DNA from: a virus
Taxonomy: Duplodnaviria; Heunggongvirae; Uroviricota; Caudoviricetes
Reading direction: 5' to 3' (one strand)
Virus record (IMG/VR): IMGVR_UViG_2711768010_000001
DNA: 7,741 bases
Shown: in pieces, positions 1 to 7,741 of the stretch
How the letters are laid out: every line of letters begins with the position of its first letter
Numbering within the stretch: the first letter of the stretch is position 1
Translations under genes and position numbers: made by a program
The notes under the pieces: generated by a model
Told to the model about the DNA's origin: nothing
What the model saw: only the letters and a program-made list of their open reading frames with translations
The model's database searches: none

Positions 1-86
1 CTCCAATGACTAGTCTAAAAACTAGTATTAAGACTATCACTTATTTAAGTGATACTGGTTGTCTGGAGATTCAGGGGGCCAGTCTA
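1..86 (-). mobile_element. IS2 left end (partial); the element continues beyond the window start and its transposase genes would be on the minus strand upstream
   Basis: Reverse complement of 1-86 reads tagactggccccctgaatctccagacaacc(a/g)tatcacttaaataagtgatagtcttaatactagtttttagactagtcattggag, which matches my recollection of the IS2 terminus and promoter region just upstream of insC. Includes the 8-bp palindrome tatcactt/aagtgata (35-54). CTAG-rich, atypical of enterobacterial coding DNA. Outer end of the element is at position 86. Confidence 0.8.
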
Positions 87-88
87 GT

Positions 89-109
89 AAGGCTGCGAGA
101 GGTGAATAA
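89..109 (+). pseudogene. 3' remnant of a class II (S21/EssD-like) pinholin gene, truncated by the IS2 insertion
   Basis: Codons aag gct gcg aga ggt gaa taa encode KAARGE-stop, the conserved C-terminus of S21-type pinholins as I recall it. The stop overlaps the endolysin ATG (taATG) as in phage 21. Upstream of 87 the sequence is IS2, and this frame has stops at 11, 23, 29 and 50. Confidence 0.55.
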
Positions 110-472
110 TGTCGCCATCATTACGCAAGGCTGTTGCAGTTGCTATTGGTGGCGGGGCTGTTGCTATAGCATCTGTGTTAATCACTGGCCCAGGTGGTAA
201 CGATGGTCTGGAAGGTGTCAGCTACATACTATACAAAGATATCATTGGTGTATGGACTGTATGTCACGGACACACCGGAAAAGACATCATGCCTGGTAAA
301 ACGTATACCGAAGCAGAATGCAAAGCTCTCCTGAATAAAGACCTTGCCACTGTCGCCAGACAAATTAACCCGTACATCAAAGTCGATATACCGGAAACAA
401 CGCGCGGCGCTCTTTACTCGTTCGTTTACAACGTGGGCGCTGGCAATTTCAGAACATCGACGCTTCTTCGCA
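109..472 (+). CDS. SAR endolysin, T4-lysozyme-like muramidase (phage 21 R21 / DLP12 RrrD family); 3' end lost in the N gap
   Basis: ATG at 109 overlaps the holin-remnant stop. N-terminal Gly/Ala-rich weakly hydrophobic signal-anchor-release segment ([20 protein letters not shown]). Catalytic Glu-Asp-Thr spacing present in [16 protein letters not shown]. Strong resemblance to R21/RrrD as recalled. 121 codons visible before the Ns. Confidence 0.9.
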
Positions 473-712
473 NNNNNNNNNNNNNNNNNNNNNNNNNNNN
501 NNNNNNNNNNNNNNNNNNNNNNNNNNNNNNNNNNNNNNNNNNNNNNNNNNNNNNNNNNNNNNNNNNNNNNNNNNNNNNNNNNNNNNNNNNNNNNNNNNNN
601 NNNNNNNNNNNNNNNNNNNNNNNNNNNNNNNNNNNNNNNNNNNNNNNNNNNNNNNNNNNNNNNNNNNNNNNNNNNNNNNNNNNNNNNNNNNNNNNNNNNN
701 NNNNNNNNNNNN
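473..712. other. Run of 240 N (assembly gap or masked sequence)
   Basis: Directly visible: n from 473 to 712. Hides the endolysin 3' end and the 5' ends of Rz and Rz1. Confidence 1.
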
Positions 713-895
713 AAATGCCCTGTGCCATCCTCAGCCGAAACCTCCAGCGCCTCCGGCATGGGCAATGATGCCACCGTCGAACTCTCTCCAGTTGCTGGAC
801 GAAACGTTCTCGGTATCCGGGACGGAATCATCAGCGACCAGACAGCATTGAGAATGCTTCAGGAGTACATCAGGATCCAATGCCTTGGGGGGTAG
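713..895 (+). CDS. Rz: Rz-like i-spanin, C-terminal part (5' end in gap)
   Basis: Frame 2 reads ...SGMGNDATVELSPVAGRNVLGIRDGIISDQTALRMLQEYIRIQCLGG-stop, which parallels the lambda Rz C-terminus (...TASGVDNAASPRLADTAERDYFTLRERLITMQKQLEGTQKYINEQCR). Position after the endolysin fits a lysis cassette. Stop TAG at 893-895. Confidence 0.8.
   Translation, partial: KCPVPSSAETSSASGMGNDATVELSPVAGRNVLGIRDGIISDQTALRMLQEYIRIQCLGG
714..851 (+). CDS. Rz1: Rz1-like o-spanin, C-terminal part, embedded in the +1 frame of Rz (5' end in gap)
   Basis: Frame 0 reads ...CHPQPKPPAPPAWAMMPPSNSLQLLDETFSVSGTESSATRQH-stop (TGA 849-851). The proline-rich PPAPPAWAMMPP stretch resembles lambda Rz1 (KPPPPPAWIMQPPP). Lies entirely inside Rz. 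Confidence 0.7.
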   Translation, partial: NALCHPQPKPPAPPAWAMMPPSNSLQLLDETFSVSGTESSATRQH

Positions 896-950
896 CGGTA
901 ATTTTACTCATTATCCTTCAAATCAGATTCTGTTGTCAGAGGAATGGGGG

Positions 951-975
951 AAGCTGGATTCGCAAGAGCTTTTTA
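951..975 (+). terminator. Weak candidate intrinsic terminator downstream of Rz
   Basis: aagct(951-955) / agctt(967-971) 5-bp stem with an 11-nt loop, followed by a T-run (tttt). Short and AU-rich, so marginal. Confidence 0.2.
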
Positions 976-983
976 TGGGCAGT

Positions 984-1493
984 TTAGCTAAAAAAAGGCA
1001 ACACGAAGCTAAAACTACCAACATAAAGTGCTGACCAGCTAGCAGCTGAAATCAGACTCACTGTATACACTTTCACTGGATGAAGTTGCAACATTCCTGC
1101 CACCAAAGGAGCAATATAACGCAGCACGGCGATAAAGCGCGAAGTGAAAAGTATTGACACAGAGTTATTTTGCAACTGAAGGCGAACCCGTTCTATTGTA
1201 TTGGAACGGCTTGATATTATACATGCAAGTTGAGGGATATGCCCAATTATTATACCAAGATGGTAATTAACGATAGTACCGCACCATGCGCCACTCATGA
1301 CCGTGATTCCAGCTTCCCATGGTGAAAGAGTCGTCTTGCTGACTGTAATTACAGTGGCCATCATAATTGATGCTGGTGGCAATATCGCCGAAATGAGTAA
1401 AGTGGATTTTGTGAACGCTATTATAAAAAGAAGCCCCCATAGGCGATATGGATGAAGTACAAAATAGTTCATCAAAGCATTTATCCACTCCAT
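984..1493 (-). CDS. DedA/YqaA-family (SNARE-associated-like) polytopic inner-membrane protein; a moron gene opposite to the late operon
   Basis: Minus-strand ORF of about 169 codons. ATG at 1493-1491 preceded by AAGGAAAG (the track's TTG at 1496 is one codon upstream). Several hydrophobic segments. Motif pattern LPP-S-(x)n-SPW ... G-x-x-NYHLG ... AG resembles E. coli YqaA as recalled. Sits in an AT-rich island (about 896-1560) between the lysis and packaging modules. Stop TAA. Confidence 0.75.
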   Translation of the reverse strand: MEWINALMNYFVLHPYRLWGLLFIIAFTKSTLLISAILPPASIMMATVITVSKTTLSPWEAGITVMSGAWCGTIVNYHLGIIIGHIPQLACIISSRSNTIERVRLQLQNNSVSILFTSRFIAVLRYIAPLVAGMLQLHPVKVYTVSLISAASWSALYVGSFSFVLPFFS

Positions 1494-1546
1494 CAATGTC
1501 TTTCCTTCTGTGAATTTTTCTTTGCTATTTAACCGTGATACGACTT

Positions 1547-1576
1547 AATTTAGGCTTAAACACCTTACATTTACAA
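1547..1576 (-). promoter_or_regulatory. Candidate sigma70 promoter for the DedA-like gene
   Basis: On the minus strand: TTGTAA (1576-1571), 18-nt spacer, TAAATT (1552-1547), about 45 nt upstream of the ATG at 1493. Each hexamer matches consensus at only 4 of 6 positions. Confidence 0.2.
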
Positions 1577-1690
1577 GGTACTCCTGTGGGGGGCCCTGCC
1601 ACGGAGCGTCGCAGGAGTGAGTGATGAGGAAGAATTAAAGCAACCTATTGTGACAGGCAGCGATAACAGTAAATCACAGGAAGCATAATC

Positions 1691-2455
1691 ATGGCAAAAC
1701 CGGACTGGGAGGCCATCGAATCGGCATACCGGGCCGGAGTCCTTAGCCTCCGTGATATAGGCGAGAAATACGGCGTTACAGAAGGGGCTATCAGGAAGAG
1801 GGCCAAAAAGCTTGGTTGGGCACGCAGTGGCGGTACGCAGGTTTGCAAAAATGGTACGCAAAAAAGGAAAGTGCGTACCAGCAGAAAGCCTGCCATTACT
1901 GGCCTTACACAAAAAAGTACGCAACTAAAAACAGAATCTACACCGGATACGAAACCGATACGCGGAATGCGTACCGATCCCCCGACTAACCCATTCCAAC
2001 CCGGTAACCAGCAGGCATTAAAACACGGTGGTTATGCCCGTCGCCTTCTGCTCAAAGATGAGGTGATAGAGGACGCTAAAGCGTTGACGCTCGAGGACGA
2101 ATTATTTCGCCTTCGTGCTAACAACCTTGTCGCTGCAGAGAATATTGGTCGGTGGTTGGTGTCGCTGGAAGATGCTAATGGGGACCAGGAAAGGAAGATG
2201 CTGATTGAAAATATCAGCGCCGCCGAGAAAGCAATGATGCGCAATACAGTTCGTATTGAGTCCATCGTTGGCACGCTTGCGACGGTAGGAAAAATATTTG
2301 CTGATACAGCCTACCGCAAGGCCGCCACTGATAAGGTGTCTCTGGAGGCTGATCGTCTTCGCCGTGATGCAGGTATTGATGATGGCAATGGAGAGCGTGA
2401 CCTCAATGACTTCTACTCTGACATCCAAACCGACGCTGAATCCGGCTTTACGTAG
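1691..2455 (+). CDS. terS: Terminase small subunit (TerS) with N-terminal helix-turn-helix
   Basis: ATG at 1691 preceded by AGGAAG with an 8-nt spacer. N-terminus LSLRDIGEKYGVTEGAIRKRAKKLGW is a typical TerS DNA-binding HTH. Basic low-complexity linker, then a helical C-terminal region. Immediately upstream of and overlapping the large terminase gene. Stop TAG 2453-2455. Confidence 0.88.
   Translation: MAKPDWEAIESAYRAGVLSLRDIGEKYGVTEGAIRKRAKKLGWARSGGTQVCKNGTQKRKVRTSRKPAITGLTQKSTQLKTESTPDTKPIRGMRTDPPTNPFQPGNQQALKHGGYARRLLLKDEVIEDAKALTLEDELFRLRANNLVAAENIGRWLVSLEDANGDQERKMLIENISAAEKAMMRNTVRIESIVGTLATVGKIFADTAYRKAATDKVSLEADRLRRDAGIDDGNGERDLNDFYSDIQTDAESGFT
1832..1975. repeat. Cluster of five GTACGCA / TGCGTAC repeats inside terS (candidate pac or TerS-binding array)
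   Basis: ggtacgca at 1832-1839 and 1853-1860; tgcgtacc at 1872-1879; gtacgca at 1917-1923; tgcgtacc at 1968-1975. Copies 2 and 3 form a perfect 8-bp inverted repeat with an 11-nt spacer. Found by direct reading. Confidence 0.35.
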
Positions 2456-3809
2456 TTTCTGGACTATGCGGGCACGTAACAAAGTGCTTTATGGTGGTCG
2501 GTCATCGTCAAAATCATGGGATGCCGCTGGCATTGCCATATTTCTGTCGAATAAATACACCCTGCGTTTTTGTTGTGCCCGTCAGATCCAGAATAAAATC
2601 GAAGAGTCGGTGTATACCCTGCTCAAAATTCAGATAGACAGGTTTGGTCTGCGGCACCGTTTCCGTATTCTGAACAACAAAATCATTAACCGGGTTACTG
2701 GCTCGGAATTTGTTTTTTATGGATTATGGCGCAACATCGAAGAAATTAAGTCACTGGAGGGGATCGATGTGTTGTGGCTGGAAGAAGCCCACGCACTGAC
2801 GGAATACCAGTGGAAAATTCTGGAGCCAACGATCCGTAAAGAGGGTTCGGAATGCTGGTTCATATTCAACCCCGGACTTGTTACTGATTTCGTCTGGCGC
2901 AACTTCGTTGTTGATCCGCCCGAAGGCACTCTCATCCGCAAAATTAACTATGACGAAAATCCGTTTCTGTCTGACACCATGCTTAAGGTTATCGACGCGG
3001 CGCGACGCCGTGATCCGGATGGTTTTAAACATGTGTATGAGGGCGTTCCGGAGTCTGATGATGATGCGGCAATCATCAAACTGTCTTGGATAGAAGCCGC
3101 AGTGGATGCGCACAAAACGTTAAATTTCGAACCCAGTGGAAGAAAGCGTATTGGCTTTGACGTGGCTGACAGTGGTACAGATAAGTGCGCTAACGTTTAC
3201 CGTCACGGATCCGTTGTTTTCTGGGCCGACGAATGGAAGGCCAAAGAAGATGAATTACTGAAGAGCTGCCAGCGTACTTATCAGGCGGCGCTGGAGCGTG
3301 AAGCAGATATTGTTTACGACTCTATCGGTGTTGGTGCGTCTGCCGGTGCTAAATTCTCTGAAATTAACGCTGACCGGAAGAGCGAGAACGCATACGCGCG
3401 ACGTGTGAATTACCAGAGGTTTAACGCCGGTGCTGGTGTGCATGAGCCAGATGACGAGTACAACGGCATCCCCAACAAAGACTTTTTCGCAAATCTTAAG
3501 GCTCAGGCATGGTGGCTGGTGGCTGACCGTTTCAGAAATACGTTTAACGCCATTAACAACGGAGAACAGTATCCTGTGGATGAGCTGATCAGCATAGATT
3601 CTCGTTGTCCGTTGCTTGAAAAGCTGAAACTGGAACTGACAACACCTCATCGTGATTTCGACCGTAACGGACGTGTGATGGTCGAAAGTAAAAAAGACCT
3701 CGCAAAACGCGAGATACCGTCACCAAACGTTGCTGATGCATTCATTATGGCCTTCGCGCCAATCGATACATCGCTGGATATCTGGGAACAGCTGGGGAGA
3801 CAGGCCTGA
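2406..3809 (+). CDS. terL: Terminase large subunit (TerL), PBSX/SPP1-type ATPase-nuclease
   Basis: Walker A-like VLYGGRSSSKSWDAAG and Walker B-like IDVLWLEEAH in the N-terminal half; acidic nuclease-type motifs (IGFDVADSGTDK, YDSIGVG) in the C-terminal half. The frame is open from 2298, but the first 36 codons overlap terS. Start is ambiguous among ATGs at 2382, 2388, 2406 and 2466; 2406 chosen (GGAGAG 12 nt upstream, N-terminus MTSTLTSKPTLNPALRSFW). Stop TGA 3807-3809. Confidence 0.9.
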   Translation: MTSTLTSKPTLNPALRSFWTMRARNKVLYGGRSSSKSWDAAGIAIFLSNKYTLRFCCARQIQNKIEESVYTLLKIQIDRFGLRHRFRILNNKIINRVTGSEFVFYGLWRNIEEIKSLEGIDVLWLEEAHALTEYQWKILEPTIRKEGSECWFIFNPGLVTDFVWRNFVVDPPEGTLIRKINYDENPFLSDTMLKVIDAARRRDPDGFKHVYEGVPESDDDAAIIKLSWIEAAVDAHKTLNFEPSGRKRIGFDVADSGTDKCANVYRHGSVVFWADEWKAKEDELLKSCQRTYQAALEREADIVYDSIGVGASAGAKFSEINADRKSENAYARRVNYQRFNAGAGVHEPDDEYNGIPNKDFFANLKAQAWWLVADRFRNTFNAINNGEQYPVDELISIDSRCPLLEKLKLELTTPHRDFDRNGRVMVESKKDLAKREIPSPNVADAFIMAFAPIDTSLDIWEQLGRQA

Positions 3810-5275
3810 TGGCACGAAACAAACAAGCCCTGCGGCGAACTGTGCAGGCCACAGCTGATGGTTATGAGAATTTTATTGCCCGCGTAGGGATGCAGACACC
3901 TAACCAGCACTCAGCATCCACCTACCGGGCTAATTTCACCAGTCGTAACCGCATGCTGGTGGAATGGTCCTATCGTTCATCCTAGATCATCGGCGAAGCA
4001 GTCGATGCTATCCCGGATGATATGACCCGCAAAGGCATTCGCATCACTTCGGAAATTGATGCAAAAGATCGTGGCATTCTCGAATCACAACTGGATGAGT
4101 TGCAAATCTGGGATGCGCTGAATGACGTGCTGAAATGGTCGCGCCTCTACGGCGGCGCGGTGGGTTTCATCATGATTGAGGGGTAGGCACCAATGACCCC
4201 GCTGCGACCCGAAACCATCGGTAAGGGCAAGTTTAAGGGGATTCTCCCGCTCGACCGCTGGATGGTCGACCCGGCACTGACCCGCCGCATTAAAGATATG
4301 GGGCCGGACCTGGGTAAACCTGAGTTTTACGATGTGGTGACCACAGCAACGGGAATTCCTGCCTGGCGCATTCATCACAGTCGCCTGATTCGCTTTGATG
4401 GCGTCACGTTGCCATTTCAGCAGAAGATGACCGAGAACGAATGGGGAATGTCGGTTGTAGAGCGTATCTGGGATCGTCTTACCGCGTTCGACAGCGCTAC
4501 TGTCGGCGCGGCGCAGCTGGTCTACAAGGCGCATTTGCGTACCTACAGCGTGGAGAAGCTACGCGAGCTTATCGCACTTGGTGGTCCTGCGTATGAAGCG
4601 TTGCTGAAGAATATCGACCTGATTCGACAGTTCCAGAGTAATGAAGGCATGACGCTCATGGACTCGCGGGATAAGTTTGAAACCCATCAGTACAGCTTCA
4701 GTGGTCTGGATGACATCCTTTCGCAGTTTGTAGAACAGATTAGTGGCGCTGTTGGTATCCCACTGGTGCGGTTGTTCGGACAGTCCCCGAAAGGATTTTC
4801 TACCGGTGATGCAGACCTTGCCAACTATTACGATCGCATCAGTTCGTTGCAGGAGAGGCGTTTACGTCTTCCGGTGCGGCGGATACTGGACATCATGCAT
4901 CGTTCGGAACTTGGCAAGCCGCTGCCGGACGATTTCACGTTTGAGTTTAACCCGCTCTGGCAAATGTCTGATGTCGATCGCTCAACGGTGGCGTTAAACA
5001 CCACCAACGCAATCAGTACGGCGCTGGGTGATGGTCTGATGACACTGAAAGCCGCTATGACTGATTTGCGAGAAAATTCTGACGTAACCGGCATCGGGGC
5101 ATCCATTACCGACGAGGACATCGAGAATGCCGAAGATGAAGCGCCGCCCGGCATCGGCGAACCTGATGACGAACCGCAGGAGCCGTCAGGCGGAAATCCG
5201 GTATCGAACCAGCCTACGCAGGATAGCGAGGGCGGTCGGAGACATCGTAAATGGTCGCTACGATGGTTCAAATGA
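3809..5275 (+). pseudogene. Portal protein gene: one continuous 489-codon frame (terminal TGA included) interrupted by two in-frame TAG codons (3983-3985 and 4184-4186)
   Basis: ATG at 3809 overlaps the terL stop (tgATG) and follows GGGGAG. Hand translation of frame 2: 58 codons (MARNKQALRR...VEWSYRSS), TAG, 66 codons (IIGEAVDAIPDDMTRKGI...LYGGAVGFIMIEG), TAG, then AP plus the 360-aa ORF 4193-5275. No frameshift. Size and position between terL and the Mu F-like gene fit a portal. Confidence 0.8.
4193..5275 (+). CDS. Largest intact ORF of the portal gene (C-terminal 360 codons); likely to be called as a separate CDS by gene finders
   Basis: ATG at 4193 with GAGGGG 9 nt upstream; same frame as 3809. 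Acidic C-terminal tail. Stop TGA 5273-5275. Whether it is translated on its own is unknown. Confidence 0.6.
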   Translation: MTPLRPETIGKGKFKGILPLDRWMVDPALTRRIKDMGPDLGKPEFYDVVTTATGIPAWRIHHSRLIRFDGVTLPFQQKMTENEWGMSVVERIWDRLTAFDSATVGAAQLVYKAHLRTYSVEKLRELIALGGPAYEALLKNIDLIRQFQSNEGMTLMDSRDKFETHQYSFSGLDDILSQFVEQISGAVGIPLVRLFGQSPKGFSTGDADLANYYDRISSLQERRLRLPVRRILDIMHRSELGKPLPDDFTFEFNPLWQMSDVDRSTVALNTTNAISTALGDGLMTLKAAMTDLRENSDVTGIGASITDEDIENAEDEAPPGIGEPDDEPQEPSGGNPVSNQPTQDSEGGRRHRKWSLRWFK

Positions 5276-5909
5276 CAGTATCACGGAAATTATTGCGGCG
5301 CTGGAGCGTTACAGTGAAATCATCACCCCCTGGGCGACAAAGGTCGCGGAAAACTTTACTGCGGACCTAACCCGGCAGAACGAGAAAGTTTGGCGGCAAC
5401 ACAGCAAGAACATCAGTCGCGAGCTCCGCAATCTTGTGGAAAGCGCTCCTGTGGGCCAGGTGATGCAATCCATCATCGCCGAACAGGTCAAGTACATCAA
5501 ATCTCTGCCTCTCGAGGCCGCAGACAGGGTGTACGACATCCAGAACAAAGCGATAGAGGCTGTTGTCACCGGTGGTCGGGCGGAGCAGTTTGCTAAAGAG
5601 ATTGCATCTACCGGCGATGTTGCTAAGTCTAGGGCCGATCTGATTGCCCGAACGGAACTGGGAAGAGCAACGGGCGCGCTGGATATGGCCCGAGCGATAG
5701 CTATTGGCTCGGATGGTTATATTTGGCGTACAGCCGATGATGGCGATGTCCGAGATTCCCACGATCACATGAAAGGTAAATTCGTCCGCTGGGATTCACC
5801 TCCAACTTTGGACGGCATGACCGGCCACGCGGGCGAGCTGCCAAACTGCCGCTGCTATAAAGAGATCGTGTTTGTTCGCGTTCCATTCGCAATGAAAAGG
5901 GCAGCATAA
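5127..5909 (+). CDS. Head morphogenesis protein, Mu F / SPP1 gp7 family
   Basis: C-terminal Mu F-like signature: ARTELGRA ... W ... DVRDSHDHMKGKFVRWD ... ELPNCRCY. ATG at 5127 with GAGG 9 nt upstream. No alternative start lies downstream of the portal stop, so it overlaps the portal 3' end by at least 110 nt. Stop TAA 5907-5909. Confidence 0.85.
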   Translation: MPKMKRRPASANLMTNRRSRQAEIRYRTSLRRIARAVGDIVNGRYDGSNDSITEIIAALERYSEIITPWATKVAENFTADLTRQNEKVWRQHSKNISRELRNLVESAPVGQVMQSIIAEQVKYIKSLPLEAADRVYDIQNKAIEAVVTGGRAEQFAKEIASTGDVAKSRADLIARTELGRATGALDMARAIAIGSDGYIWRTADDGDVRDSHDHMKGKFVRWDSPPTLDGMTGHAGELPNCRCYKEIVFVRVPFAMKRAA

Positions 5910-5912
5910 CCC

Positions 5913-7133
5913 ATGAAATACTTTTTTGAGACCAGGCTCGGGGAAACCCGATACCGCCTGGCTGACGGCTCGTTGCTGTGCAAAGACGTGCCGATAGGAC
6001 GAACAGGTAAGCAGCTCTATGGTGCTGATGACCTGCCAAAACTGAAACCCGATAAGTTCGGTGAAATAGTCGTCACGCGTTCTCCTGAGCAGGTATTCCA
6101 TCCGGCCACGCTTGCCTCATTCGAAGGGATGAGCATCACGATCCTGCATCCTGAAGATGAAAACGGGAATGTGCGGCTGGTAAATCCCGAGAACTGGAAA
6201 GAGCTTGCTGTCGGGCACCTCCAGAATGTCCGGCGCGGGACGGGTGAGCAGTCTGATTTGATGCTGGCTGACCTTATCGTCAAAGACGAAAGCGCCATTC
6301 AGCTTATCGAAGATGGCCTGCGCGAAGTGTCGTGCGGCTATGACGCGGAGTACGAGCAGACCGAGCCAGGTAAAGCCGAGCAGGTCGATATTACCGGAAA
6401 CCATGTGGCTCTTGTCCCTAAAGGCAGAGCCGGAAATCGTTGTGCAATTGGAGACAGAGACACAATGGCAAATCAAAAGAAAAACTGGTGGAACCGCATG
6501 CGTGCGGCCATCAAGACAGGAGATGCCGACACCATGAACGAACTGGTGGAGTCGGCTCCCGCATCGGTTACAGGAGATGAGGGGGATTTGCCGCAGGGCG
6601 TTAATCTCAACATCAACCTGTCCCCGCAGCAACCACTACCGGACAAAGCACCAGAGATGGGCGGAGATCCAACCGGCGACAGTGATGATGACCTCAAAAC
6701 ATTACTGAAAGCCCTGCTGGCTAAGCTGGAAAGAAATGCCACGGGCGATAACGATAATAAGCCTGACGATAATCCGACCGGTGACGGCGAGGACGATGAA
6801 GAGGAAACCACGATTACTGGTGACTCAGCCTGGCGTGCCGAAGTTATCGTTCCGGGTATCGATCTGAGCCGTAAGATGAAACCGACCGCGTTCAAACGCG
6901 AGGTTCTGGCTTCTGCTGACAAAACGCTGGTTCGCCAGATAGTCGGTGATGCGGATATCCGCAAATTACCGAAACAATCGGTCGACATGGCGTTTAATGC
7001 CGTGTCTGAGGTTGCCAAAGGGCGAAACACCCGCGCCACCACCGGCGATGCACAGCGCCTAAACATGGGCATGACCAGTATCGCTTCCCTGAACAAACAA
7101 AACGCTGAATTCTGGGCAAACCGTAAAGGGTAA
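5913..7133 (+). CDS. DUF2213-family phage protein (PBSX XkdF-like putative prohead protease or scaffold) with an acidic low-complexity middle region
   Basis: N-terminal 180 aa carry motifs I associate with DUF2213 (RTGKQLY, RSPEQVF, ITILHP, SCGYDAEYE, NHVALVPKGRAG). Middle region is Asp/Glu-rich with repeated TGD tripeptides. Helical C-terminus. Position between the Mu F gene and downstream capsid genes is typical. Stop TAA. Confidence 0.8.
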   Translation: MKYFFETRLGETRYRLADGSLLCKDVPIGRTGKQLYGADDLPKLKPDKFGEIVVTRSPEQVFHPATLASFEGMSITILHPEDENGNVRLVNPENWKELAVGHLQNVRRGTGEQSDLMLADLIVKDESAIQLIEDGLREVSCGYDAEYEQTEPGKAEQVDITGNHVALVPKGRAGNRCAIGDRDTMANQKKNWWNRMRAAIKTGDADTMNELVESAPASVTGDEGDLPQGVNLNINLSPQQPLPDKAPEMGGDPTGDSDDDLKTLLKALLAKLERNATGDNDNKPDDNPTGDGEDDEEETTITGDSAWRAEVIVPGIDLSRKMKPTAFKREVLASADKTLVRQIVGDADIRKLPKQSVDMAFNAVSEVAKGRNTRATTGDAQRLNMGMTSIASLNKQNAEFWANRKG

Positions 7134-7136
7134 AAA

Positions 7137-7643
7137 ATGAATAATGTATTTCTGTACCGGATGCCTGTTGGCATTGCCGGGGCTGTCTCTCGCCCGCAGG
7201 ACTTAACCGTCGAACCGGTGGTCCTTAAATCCGATAACGCCTTCGCTGCCTATGGCCTGGCTGGTAAATACGATGATGACGGTTTTTTCGTGCCGCTGGC
7301 AGATGGTGATACCGCAGACAAGGTGAAGGGGATCTACGTGCGCCCTTATCCGACCACGTCGCAGCCGGACATGGTTCGCCAGGTGGGAACAGGCAAGAAC
7401 TTCCCGGGCGACGCCATGAAGCGTGGCTACGTGACCGTTAATCTCGGTTCTGATTTTGATGCCAGCACTATCAAAAAAGGCGATCCGGTATACGTTGTCG
7501 TCTCCACTGATGAATCCATCAAAGTGCCGCTGGGTGGATTCATGTCCACGTCAGTCAGTGGCAAAAACGTGGTGCTGACCAACGCTGAATTCACAGGTGC
7601 CGGTGATGCTGACGGCAATGCAGAAATTTCCTGGAAGATTTAA
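7137..7643 (+). CDS. Small phage head-associated structural protein (function uncertain; possibly decoration or cement)
   Basis: 168-codon ORF with AAGGG 6 nt upstream of the ATG. Coding-like composition; Gly, Asp, Val and Thr-rich with no hydrophobic segment. Sits where head accessory or capsid genes follow the scaffold gene. Stop TAA 7641-7643. Confidence 0.7.
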   Translation: MNNVFLYRMPVGIAGAVSRPQDLTVEPVVLKSDNAFAAYGLAGKYDDDGFFVPLADGDTADKVKGIYVRPYPTTSQPDMVRQVGTGKNFPGDAMKRGYVTVNLGSDFDASTIKKGDPVYVVVSTDESIKVPLGGFMSTSVSGKNVVLTNAEFTGAGDADGNAEISWKI

Positions 7644-7658
7644 GGAACAGACGAATGA

Positions 7659-7741
7659 GGTGATGCTGCCAACTTACTGATTTAGTGTATGATGGTGTTT
7701 TTGAGGTGCTCCAGTGGCTTCTGTTTCTATCAGCTGTCCCT
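7659..7741 (+). mobile_element. IS1 left end (partial; continues beyond the window end)
   Basis: ggtgatgctgccaacttactgatttagtgtatgatggtgtttttgaggtgctccagtggcttctgtttctatcagctgtccct matches my recollection of the IS1 left terminal inverted repeat and the 5' region of insA (the same sequence that pACYC vectors carry via Tn9). Starts 16 nt after the stop of the preceding head gene. Confidence 0.85.
7714..7741 (+). CDS. insA: IS1 InsA, first 9 codons only (partial)
   Basis: GTG at 7714 (GAGG 7 nt upstream) followed by gct tct gtt tct atc agc tgt ccc, giving (M)ASVSISCP, the known InsA N-terminus. Truncated by the window end. Confidence 0.6.

Follow-up and report, generated by a model that had tools for sequence, protein, structure and literature searches.

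The portal gene carried by the IMG/VR virus record IMGVR_UViG_2711768010_000001 (Caudoviricetes) is almost certainly a fixed pseudogene in a Shigella sonnei prophage remnant eroded by insertion sequences (ISs), and it lost its function through two spontaneous nonsense transitions. The stretch of DNA that we analysed, hereafter the window, is 7,741 nt long, and the portal frame stands near its middle. A preliminary description, made from the letters of the window, had read this frame as a pseudogene that nonsense mutations had recently inactivated in a decaying prophage, and had named amber suppression and sequencing error as alternatives; the first of these readings held on every test run, and the two alternatives did not. 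This is ordinary gene decay and known biology, a textbook example of how pseudogenes form in Shigella, whose decaying genomes are rich in ISs.

The frame comprises 489 codons and is closed by TGA, and its translation is broken at two places only, by TAG at codon 59 and by TAG at codon 126, so that the earlier count of exactly two in-frame amber codons is right, down to the coordinates (Table 1). The stop codon of terL overlaps the start of the frame in TGATG (3807-3811), and GGGGAGA lies 9 nt upstream of that start; the ribosome-binding site and the coupling to terL that had been proposed are thus both present. Moreover, no indel separates the frame from its intact relatives, and the window is collinear with the prophage of Escherichia coli FDAARGOS_944 over 87-472 and 713-7658, which agrees with the earlier statement that no frameshift has occurred. 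On the Pfam portal profile PF06381, the second fragment of the frame aligned with positions 24-76 and the third with positions 84-355, where the intact relative covered positions 7-355; the scores were 40 and 274.5 bits for the two fragments and 355.4 bits for the relative (cut-off 33.8). The open reading frame (ORF) fragments therefore lie in order on one portal profile, and the segments are collinear with a single portal, as had been supposed. The intact relative itself matched PF06381 with an E-value of 3.3e-106 and phrog_146, portal protein, with an E-value of 1.4e-174, and the closest solved structure was the Pam3 portal (8hds, E 2.2e-37).

The genomic position points the same way, because the frame directly follows terL in the head module and is itself followed by the MuF, DUF2213 and cement genes. 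In its profile match, in its place after terL and in its length of ~488 aa if read through, the frame is like the PF06381 portals. However, where the relatives have one uninterrupted, stop-free ORF of 482-501 aa, and ~480-500 aa would be expected, the window frame is interrupted twice, and it is a member of the family by descent only. By these sequence comparisons, the three pieces are one portal gene that has acquired two recent nonsense mutations.

The ancestral state of both codons could be established from relatives. The closest intact relative is the prophage in E. coli FDAARGOS_944, with 99.8% identity over the portal; aligned over 7,750 bases, it and the S. sonnei sequence show 16 differences and no indel. 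A single G:C>A:T transition from a sense codon of this relative accounts for each stop, the codons being TGG (W59) and CAG (Q126), and each of the two is one substitution away from TAG, as had been expected of homologues at these places. All eight outgroups, namely five E. coli prophages and the phages vB_EcoM-606R2, SEN34 and Omnitron, have TGG at codon 59, CAG at codon 126 and GCA at codon 308. An IMG/VR scan with a pattern derived from the window gave 80 related copies, of which 76 span both codons; TGG/CAG was found in 72 and TAG/TAG in four, and these four are all of the sonnei type and also have GTA at codon 308. The eight outgroups and the 72 IMG/VR relatives thus support TAG as the derived state. 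No copy with a single stop was present among the 76, and none of the 72 intact copies contained any other internal stop. Among 30 aligned full-length portals (482-501 aa, 57-99% identity), Q126 was invariant and W59 was present in 28, and in every S. sonnei copy examined both stops were observed directly.

Two further observations concern these codons. A 125-aa ORF on three Logan contigs (P0165) contains the portal N-terminus with W59 intact and ends at codon 125, as would be expected, judged from its sequence, for an intermediate with Q126* only. In S. sonnei CP022672.1, a 1,153-nt IS630-family element (L096, 2809-3961) sits inside the TA of the codon-59 TAG with the TA duplicated, the insertion point being equivalent to window 3983-3984. 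The TGG>TAG change at codon 59 had created CTAG, the preferred target of IS630. Because an IS630-family element has entered the codon-59 TAG in this one strain, decay of the gene continues.

The portal is not the only damaged part of the prophage. In S. sonnei 53G, an IS2 of 1,331 bp, flanked by the 5-bp duplication GTAAG, interrupts the holin gene 23 nt short of its end; the element adjoins a coding sequence (CDS) annotated as 'IS3-like element IS2 family transposase', its products match HTH_Tnp_1 and rve, and the first ~96 nt of the window match a multi-copy element that 4,687 of 5,426 E. coli genomes contain, as do thousands of plasmids. On the other side of the window stands an IS1 of 768 bp (Pfam Zn_ribbon_InsA, HTH_Tnp_IS1 and DDE_Tnp_IS1), which links nucleotide 4 of the major capsid gene with a site that lies 16 nt upstream of the truncated remnant of an invertase adjoining pgl; the match to locus L001 accordingly ends at 9850, 4 nt into the major capsid CDS (9847-10788). 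No target duplication is present at the IS1 in 53G, because one of its flanks is a deletion junction. Between these junction points, 19,075 bp of FDAARGOS_944 are missing in S. sonnei 53G, and the missing DNA encodes the capsid, head-tail connectors, sheath, tube, baseplate, tail fibres and ipaHb. Moreover, an IS3-family element in 53G replaces most of the upstream phage tRNA cluster.

With the IS2 and IS1 lesions in place and all genes from the major capsid gene onward absent, the claim of a decaying prophage is well founded. Judged from gene content, the element is unable to form virions whatever the state of its portal, as the capsid and tail genes are gone and IS2 lies in the holin gene. 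The preliminary description had held that the portal stops bear on whether the element can still package DNA. The capacity to form virions is indeed lacking, but the portal is not decisive, since the loss of capsid and tail settles the matter alone. In FDAARGOS_944, ipaHb, which encodes an effector of the type III secretion system, has the tail-fibre genes on one side and the invertase remnant by pgl on the other (L017, 16861-18687). A second IS1 in 53G stands between ybhD and ybhJ in place of the chromosomal genes ybhH and ybhI (L006, 16827-17599, compared with L017, 21767-24579).

IS2 disrupted the holin gene, and an IS1-associated deletion took away ~19 kb that starts in the major capsid gene and takes in the tail, fibres and ipaH. 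A remnant with no virion-forming capacity left to protect would then have let further mutations pass unopposed, among them the spontaneous G:C>A:T transitions that turned Trp59 (TGG) and Gln126 (CAG) into TAG and a third that gave A308V. A ribosome translating the gene would halt at codon 59 and no functional portal would be made, and the possible products would at most be short fragments or a 360-aa piece restarted at Met129. The codon states, their polarity and the IS lesions are observed, and we infer both the neutrality of the mutations and the order of these events.

The sonnei branch carries eight derived substitutions, namely P41L, D127Y and R136C in the endolysin gene, C18R in Rz, a synonymous change in dedA, and W59*, Q126* and A308V in the portal gene; terS and terL have no sonnei-derived change. 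Six of the eight are G:C>A:T transitions, and G:C>A:T is the usual direction of bacterial mutation. Seven change a protein and one is synonymous, and this 7:1 ratio, taken over eight unevenly spread events, would fit relaxed selection. The identity of the two stops is also close to what mutation would give by chance. The portal gene holds 17 CAG and 11 TGG codons, because of which 57% of its G:C>A:T nonsense paths end in TAG, and hence the probability that both stops would be TAG, given the portal codons and transition mutations, is ~0.33.

Two points weigh against simple neutral decay of the portal gene. The occurrence of two nonsense changes among eight derived changes has a P of 0.03-0.08. 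The changes are also unevenly spread, with three in the endolysin gene, all within 498 nt (L006, 5739-6236), three in the portal gene and no change at all across the 4.5 kb that terS-terL and MuF-to-cement make up, for which simulation gave P ~0.004 with a gene grouping that was picked after seeing the data and with eight events only. Pure neutral decay predicts neither this uneven spread nor the nonsense excess. As to the stops, it matters that the window was chosen for study because of them, so that they call for no explanation beyond neutral decay.

The explanation that makes most of the uneven spread is selection in place of neutrality, and we consider it improbable. Leaky late-gene expression would have been harmful, so that knock-outs of the endolysin and portal genes were favoured; the harm would have come from a signal-arrest-release (SAR) endolysin free of holin control, and from a portal that is toxic or that triggers a defence system, whereas the terminase and head accessory genes would stay intact. 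The gene would still be a pseudogene, and the cause alone would differ. The distribution of changes is what such selection would produce, with three of three endolysin changes missense, two nonsense changes and one missense change in the portal gene and none in the two intact blocks, and the P values given above for unevenness and nonsense excess speak for it. These values, however, come from the same eight events, grouped post hoc in a window chosen for its stops. Moreover, no sigma-70-like promoter reads from the IS2 end into the operon, nothing indicates that the operon is transcribed, and a second stop in an already dead gene cannot be selected. The idea that IS2 drives the late genes was likewise dropped, since the IS2 end contains no outward-facing promoter-like site. 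Slightly less probable again is the fuller version, in which the endolysin and portal genes would have been silenced by selection and the terminase and head accessory genes kept, possibly for use by the host or by another mobile element.

Neutral decay of the portal gene also has to be set against amber suppression, in which a suppressor tRNA of the host or the phage would allow read-through and give a full-length, working portal. The otherwise intact frame, the fact that both stops are TAG, and the two TAG-terminated neighbours with a back-up stop within 8 codons would suit such a mechanism, and the preliminary description had taken the neighbours as a sign that amber read-through is tolerated. 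The tandem stops are there, with TAA 2 codons after the TAG of Rz and 8 codons after the TAG of terS. The intact relative, however, has exactly the same pairs of stops, and the TAA-terminated cement gene also has a second stop 5 codons on; because intact relatives share the same arrangement, the tandem-stop argument is void and carries no weight as support. TAG ends Rz and terS in the intact relatives too, and thus works as a terminator there. A scan that covered the window and the 21-kb flanks of three S. sonnei assemblies gave no tRNA-CUA; the window has no tRNA, the sole one in the flanks has a CAT anticodon, and a CTA anticodon is absent from the phage tRNA cluster of the relative (CAT, TCT, TGT and TCC). 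Furthermore, the stops are recent changes from a conserved W and a conserved Q, a pair of TAG stops is expected one time in three, and even a functional portal would serve no purpose in an element that lacks capsid and tail genes. We regard suppression as very improbable.

Comparison with known amber systems leads to the same view. In some gut phages TAG is reassigned to a sense codon, and the window shares with them an in-frame TAG in a structural gene. In contrast to such phages, it has two TAGs in one gene, the terS, terL, MuF, DUF2213 and cement ORFs are uninterrupted, its Rz and terS terminate in TAG, and no suppressor tRNA is nearby, so that every tested defining feature of stop-codon-recoded phages failed. 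Classical portal amber mutants are known in lambda B, P22 gene 1 and T4 gene 20, in which head assembly is blocked unless a suppressor tRNA is present; these mutants are laboratory isolates of phages that were viable in other respects and were grown on suppressor hosts. The stops of S. sonnei are like these in the codon only, CAG>TAG and TGG>TAG being typical of transition mutagenesis, whereas they are natural, are fixed in a host lineage and stand in a remnant without capsid and tail genes.

Sequencing or assembly error, with sense codons in the true genome, is less probable still. We found no direct support for it, and the long-read-only assemblies of this region that carry extra 1-nt indels do show that errors occur. 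Against it, the window is 100% identical to the chromosome of S. sonnei 53G (HE616528.1), which is the S. sonnei reference in published work, and to other complete S. sonnei assemblies; several projects have yielded the same sequence in many independent S. sonnei assemblies, and four IMG/VR proviruses share it. Exact copies of the fragments occur in 2,576-2,758 index blocks (about 2,600-2,750), with 2,576 for the 360-aa ORF (4193-5275) as an exact protein, mostly on contigs of 5-10 kb, and each fragment occurs on >1,000 contigs, with Shigella sonnei names in NCBI and UniRef. These independent assemblies and index blocks exclude the error that had been raised as an alternative. The assemblies with extra 1-nt indels are of S. 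sonnei (JBEAA*, JBDZZZ* and JBQRUS*; L021, L022, L025, L095 and L097) and have split ORFs in terS, terL, DUF2213 and cement. Because other S. sonnei assemblies are without those indels, they are probably long-read consensus errors and not further decay.

Least probable of all is a portal that is naturally three separate genes in this phage group, which the annotation of 58-, 54- and 360-aa ORFs by gene callers and a PHROGs family of 54 aa matching residues 72-125 might suggest, but which the relatives refute, as the portal is a single CDS of ~1,467 nt in 338 E. coli genomes, one 488-aa gene in the isolated phages vB_EcoM-606R2 and SEN34, and free of internal stops in all 72 intact IMG/VR relatives. 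In annotation, the locus is best entered as a single portal pseudogene of a defective prophage and not as three hypothetical proteins. Beyond annotation the case has little significance; it is a clean, small example of one prophage family decaying by differing lesions. In databases the portal fragments, that at 3809-3985 included, stand as separate proteins under names such as 'putative bacteriophage protein', and the 54-aa piece (4022-4186) is named 'Alpha/beta hydrolase' in UniRef. The fragments appear to match small PHROG families; the 54-aa family is phrog_28295, and phrog_12751 and phrog_15615 are other families of fragment length.

The fate of this prophage family differs among Shigella lineages. 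In an S. dysenteriae-type copy (L160), the portal is cut at nucleotide ~307 by an IS1 end (L160 1-29, reverse complement), CAG126 is kept, and four missense changes of its own are present. A protein of Sd197 and 1617 (P0122), with 360 aa and the same Met129 start, had suggested that Q126* is shared with S. dysenteriae; this was rejected, as codon 126 is CAG in the provirus with exactly this protein, whose portal is cut by the IS1 end. The S. dysenteriae-type portal was thus inactivated independently. In S. flexneri SFBU1023 (L032), the portal is intact and terL is broken by an IS2 (5553-6883, duplication GCAAT) and by a 7-bp deletion (7329), and E. coli FDAARGOS_943 has an IS2 in terL too. Our scan of genome contigs gave S. 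flexneri-type copies, with no S. sonnei or S. dysenteriae genome among its results. One prophage family is thus decaying independently, with different lesions in each lineage.

A published account of Shigella genomes (PMC8072062) describes IS expansion, pseudogenisation, rearrangement and defective prophages. The present remnant is like what is described there in its IS2 and IS1 bounds, in its 19-kb IS-associated deletion, in its fixed point-mutation pseudogenes in a young clonal pathogen and in the independent lesions of its S. flexneri and S. dysenteriae-type relatives. Nothing of substance sets it apart, and it adds one further instance; the portal was hit by point mutations and not by an IS, save in CP022672.1.

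The features of the window are collected in Table 1. The window is a short-read contig broken within repeats on both sides, an IS2 end on the left and an IS1 end on the right. Its ends had also been considered as cloning-vector sequence, under which the TAGs would be engineered, since pACYC184 contains the last 83 nt too and palindromes within the first 86 nt resemble a synthetic operator. This was discarded, as the ends are IS1 and IS2 termini that are multi-copy in E. coli and Shigella, and the whole window is present in the S. sonnei chromosome. The run of N is a masking or assembly feature and not biology. The offsets to L006 and L001 change by 178 nt across 474-712; every coordinate to the right of the run is hence 178 nt out of step with the genome, and ORFs called through the run have no meaning.

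Table 1. Features of the 7,741-nt window, in window coordinates
Feature	Position	Strand	State or basis
IS2 end (IS3 family)	1-86	-	simple insertion in 3' end of holin gene; window starts within element
Class II holin gene, last 23 nt	87-109	+	alignment to L001 2101-2123 and RefSeq annotation of relative
Target duplication GTAAG	87-91		
Holin stop codon TAA	107-109		
SAR-type endolysin gene (rrrD-like)	109-473	+	3' end under N run; Pfam Phage_lysozyme, 165-aa product
N run	474-712	.	239 N in place of 418 real bases (endolysin gene end, Rz/Rz1 start)
Rz spanin gene, 3' part	713-895	+	TAG at 893-895; Pfam Phage_lysis, 156-aa product
DedA-family membrane protein gene	984-1496	-	intact; RefSeq annotation of relative, Pfam VTT_dom
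terS, small terminase subunit	1691-2455	+	intact, ends in TAG; phrog_370, E 7.5e-95
terL, large terminase subunit (PBSX/Terminase_3 type)	2406-3809	+	intact; RefSeq annotation, PF04466, PHROGs
Portal pseudogene (PF06381, Phage_portal_3 / DUF1073)	3809-5275	+	488 aa if read through
Amber codon 59	3983-3985	+	TGG (Trp) to TAG, G>A at 3984
Amber codon 126	4184-4186	+	CAG (Gln) to TAG, C>T at 4184
A308V	4730-4732	+	GCA>GTA, C>T at 4731; third derived change in portal frame
Head morphogenesis (Mu F-like) gene	5166-5909	+	intact; RefSeq annotation, PF04233
DUF2213 / Pa193_gp24 gene	5913-7133	+	intact; head maturation protease or scaffold-like
Capsid cement (Gp24-like) gene	7137-7643	+	intact
Major capsid gene (DUF2184), first 4 nt ATGA	7655-7658	+	remainder absent
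IS1 left end	7659-7741	+	window ends within element

Among the neighbouring genes, the endolysin gene has its P41L change at window position 230, and its D127Y and R136C changes lie under the N run; the start of the Mu F-like gene is placed at 5166 or at 5451, as gene callers differ. The DedA-family gene, whose one synonymous difference is at 1212, is probably prophage cargo between Rz and terS; it is present in the few closest relatives only, and a promoter-like site is located at 1245-1216.

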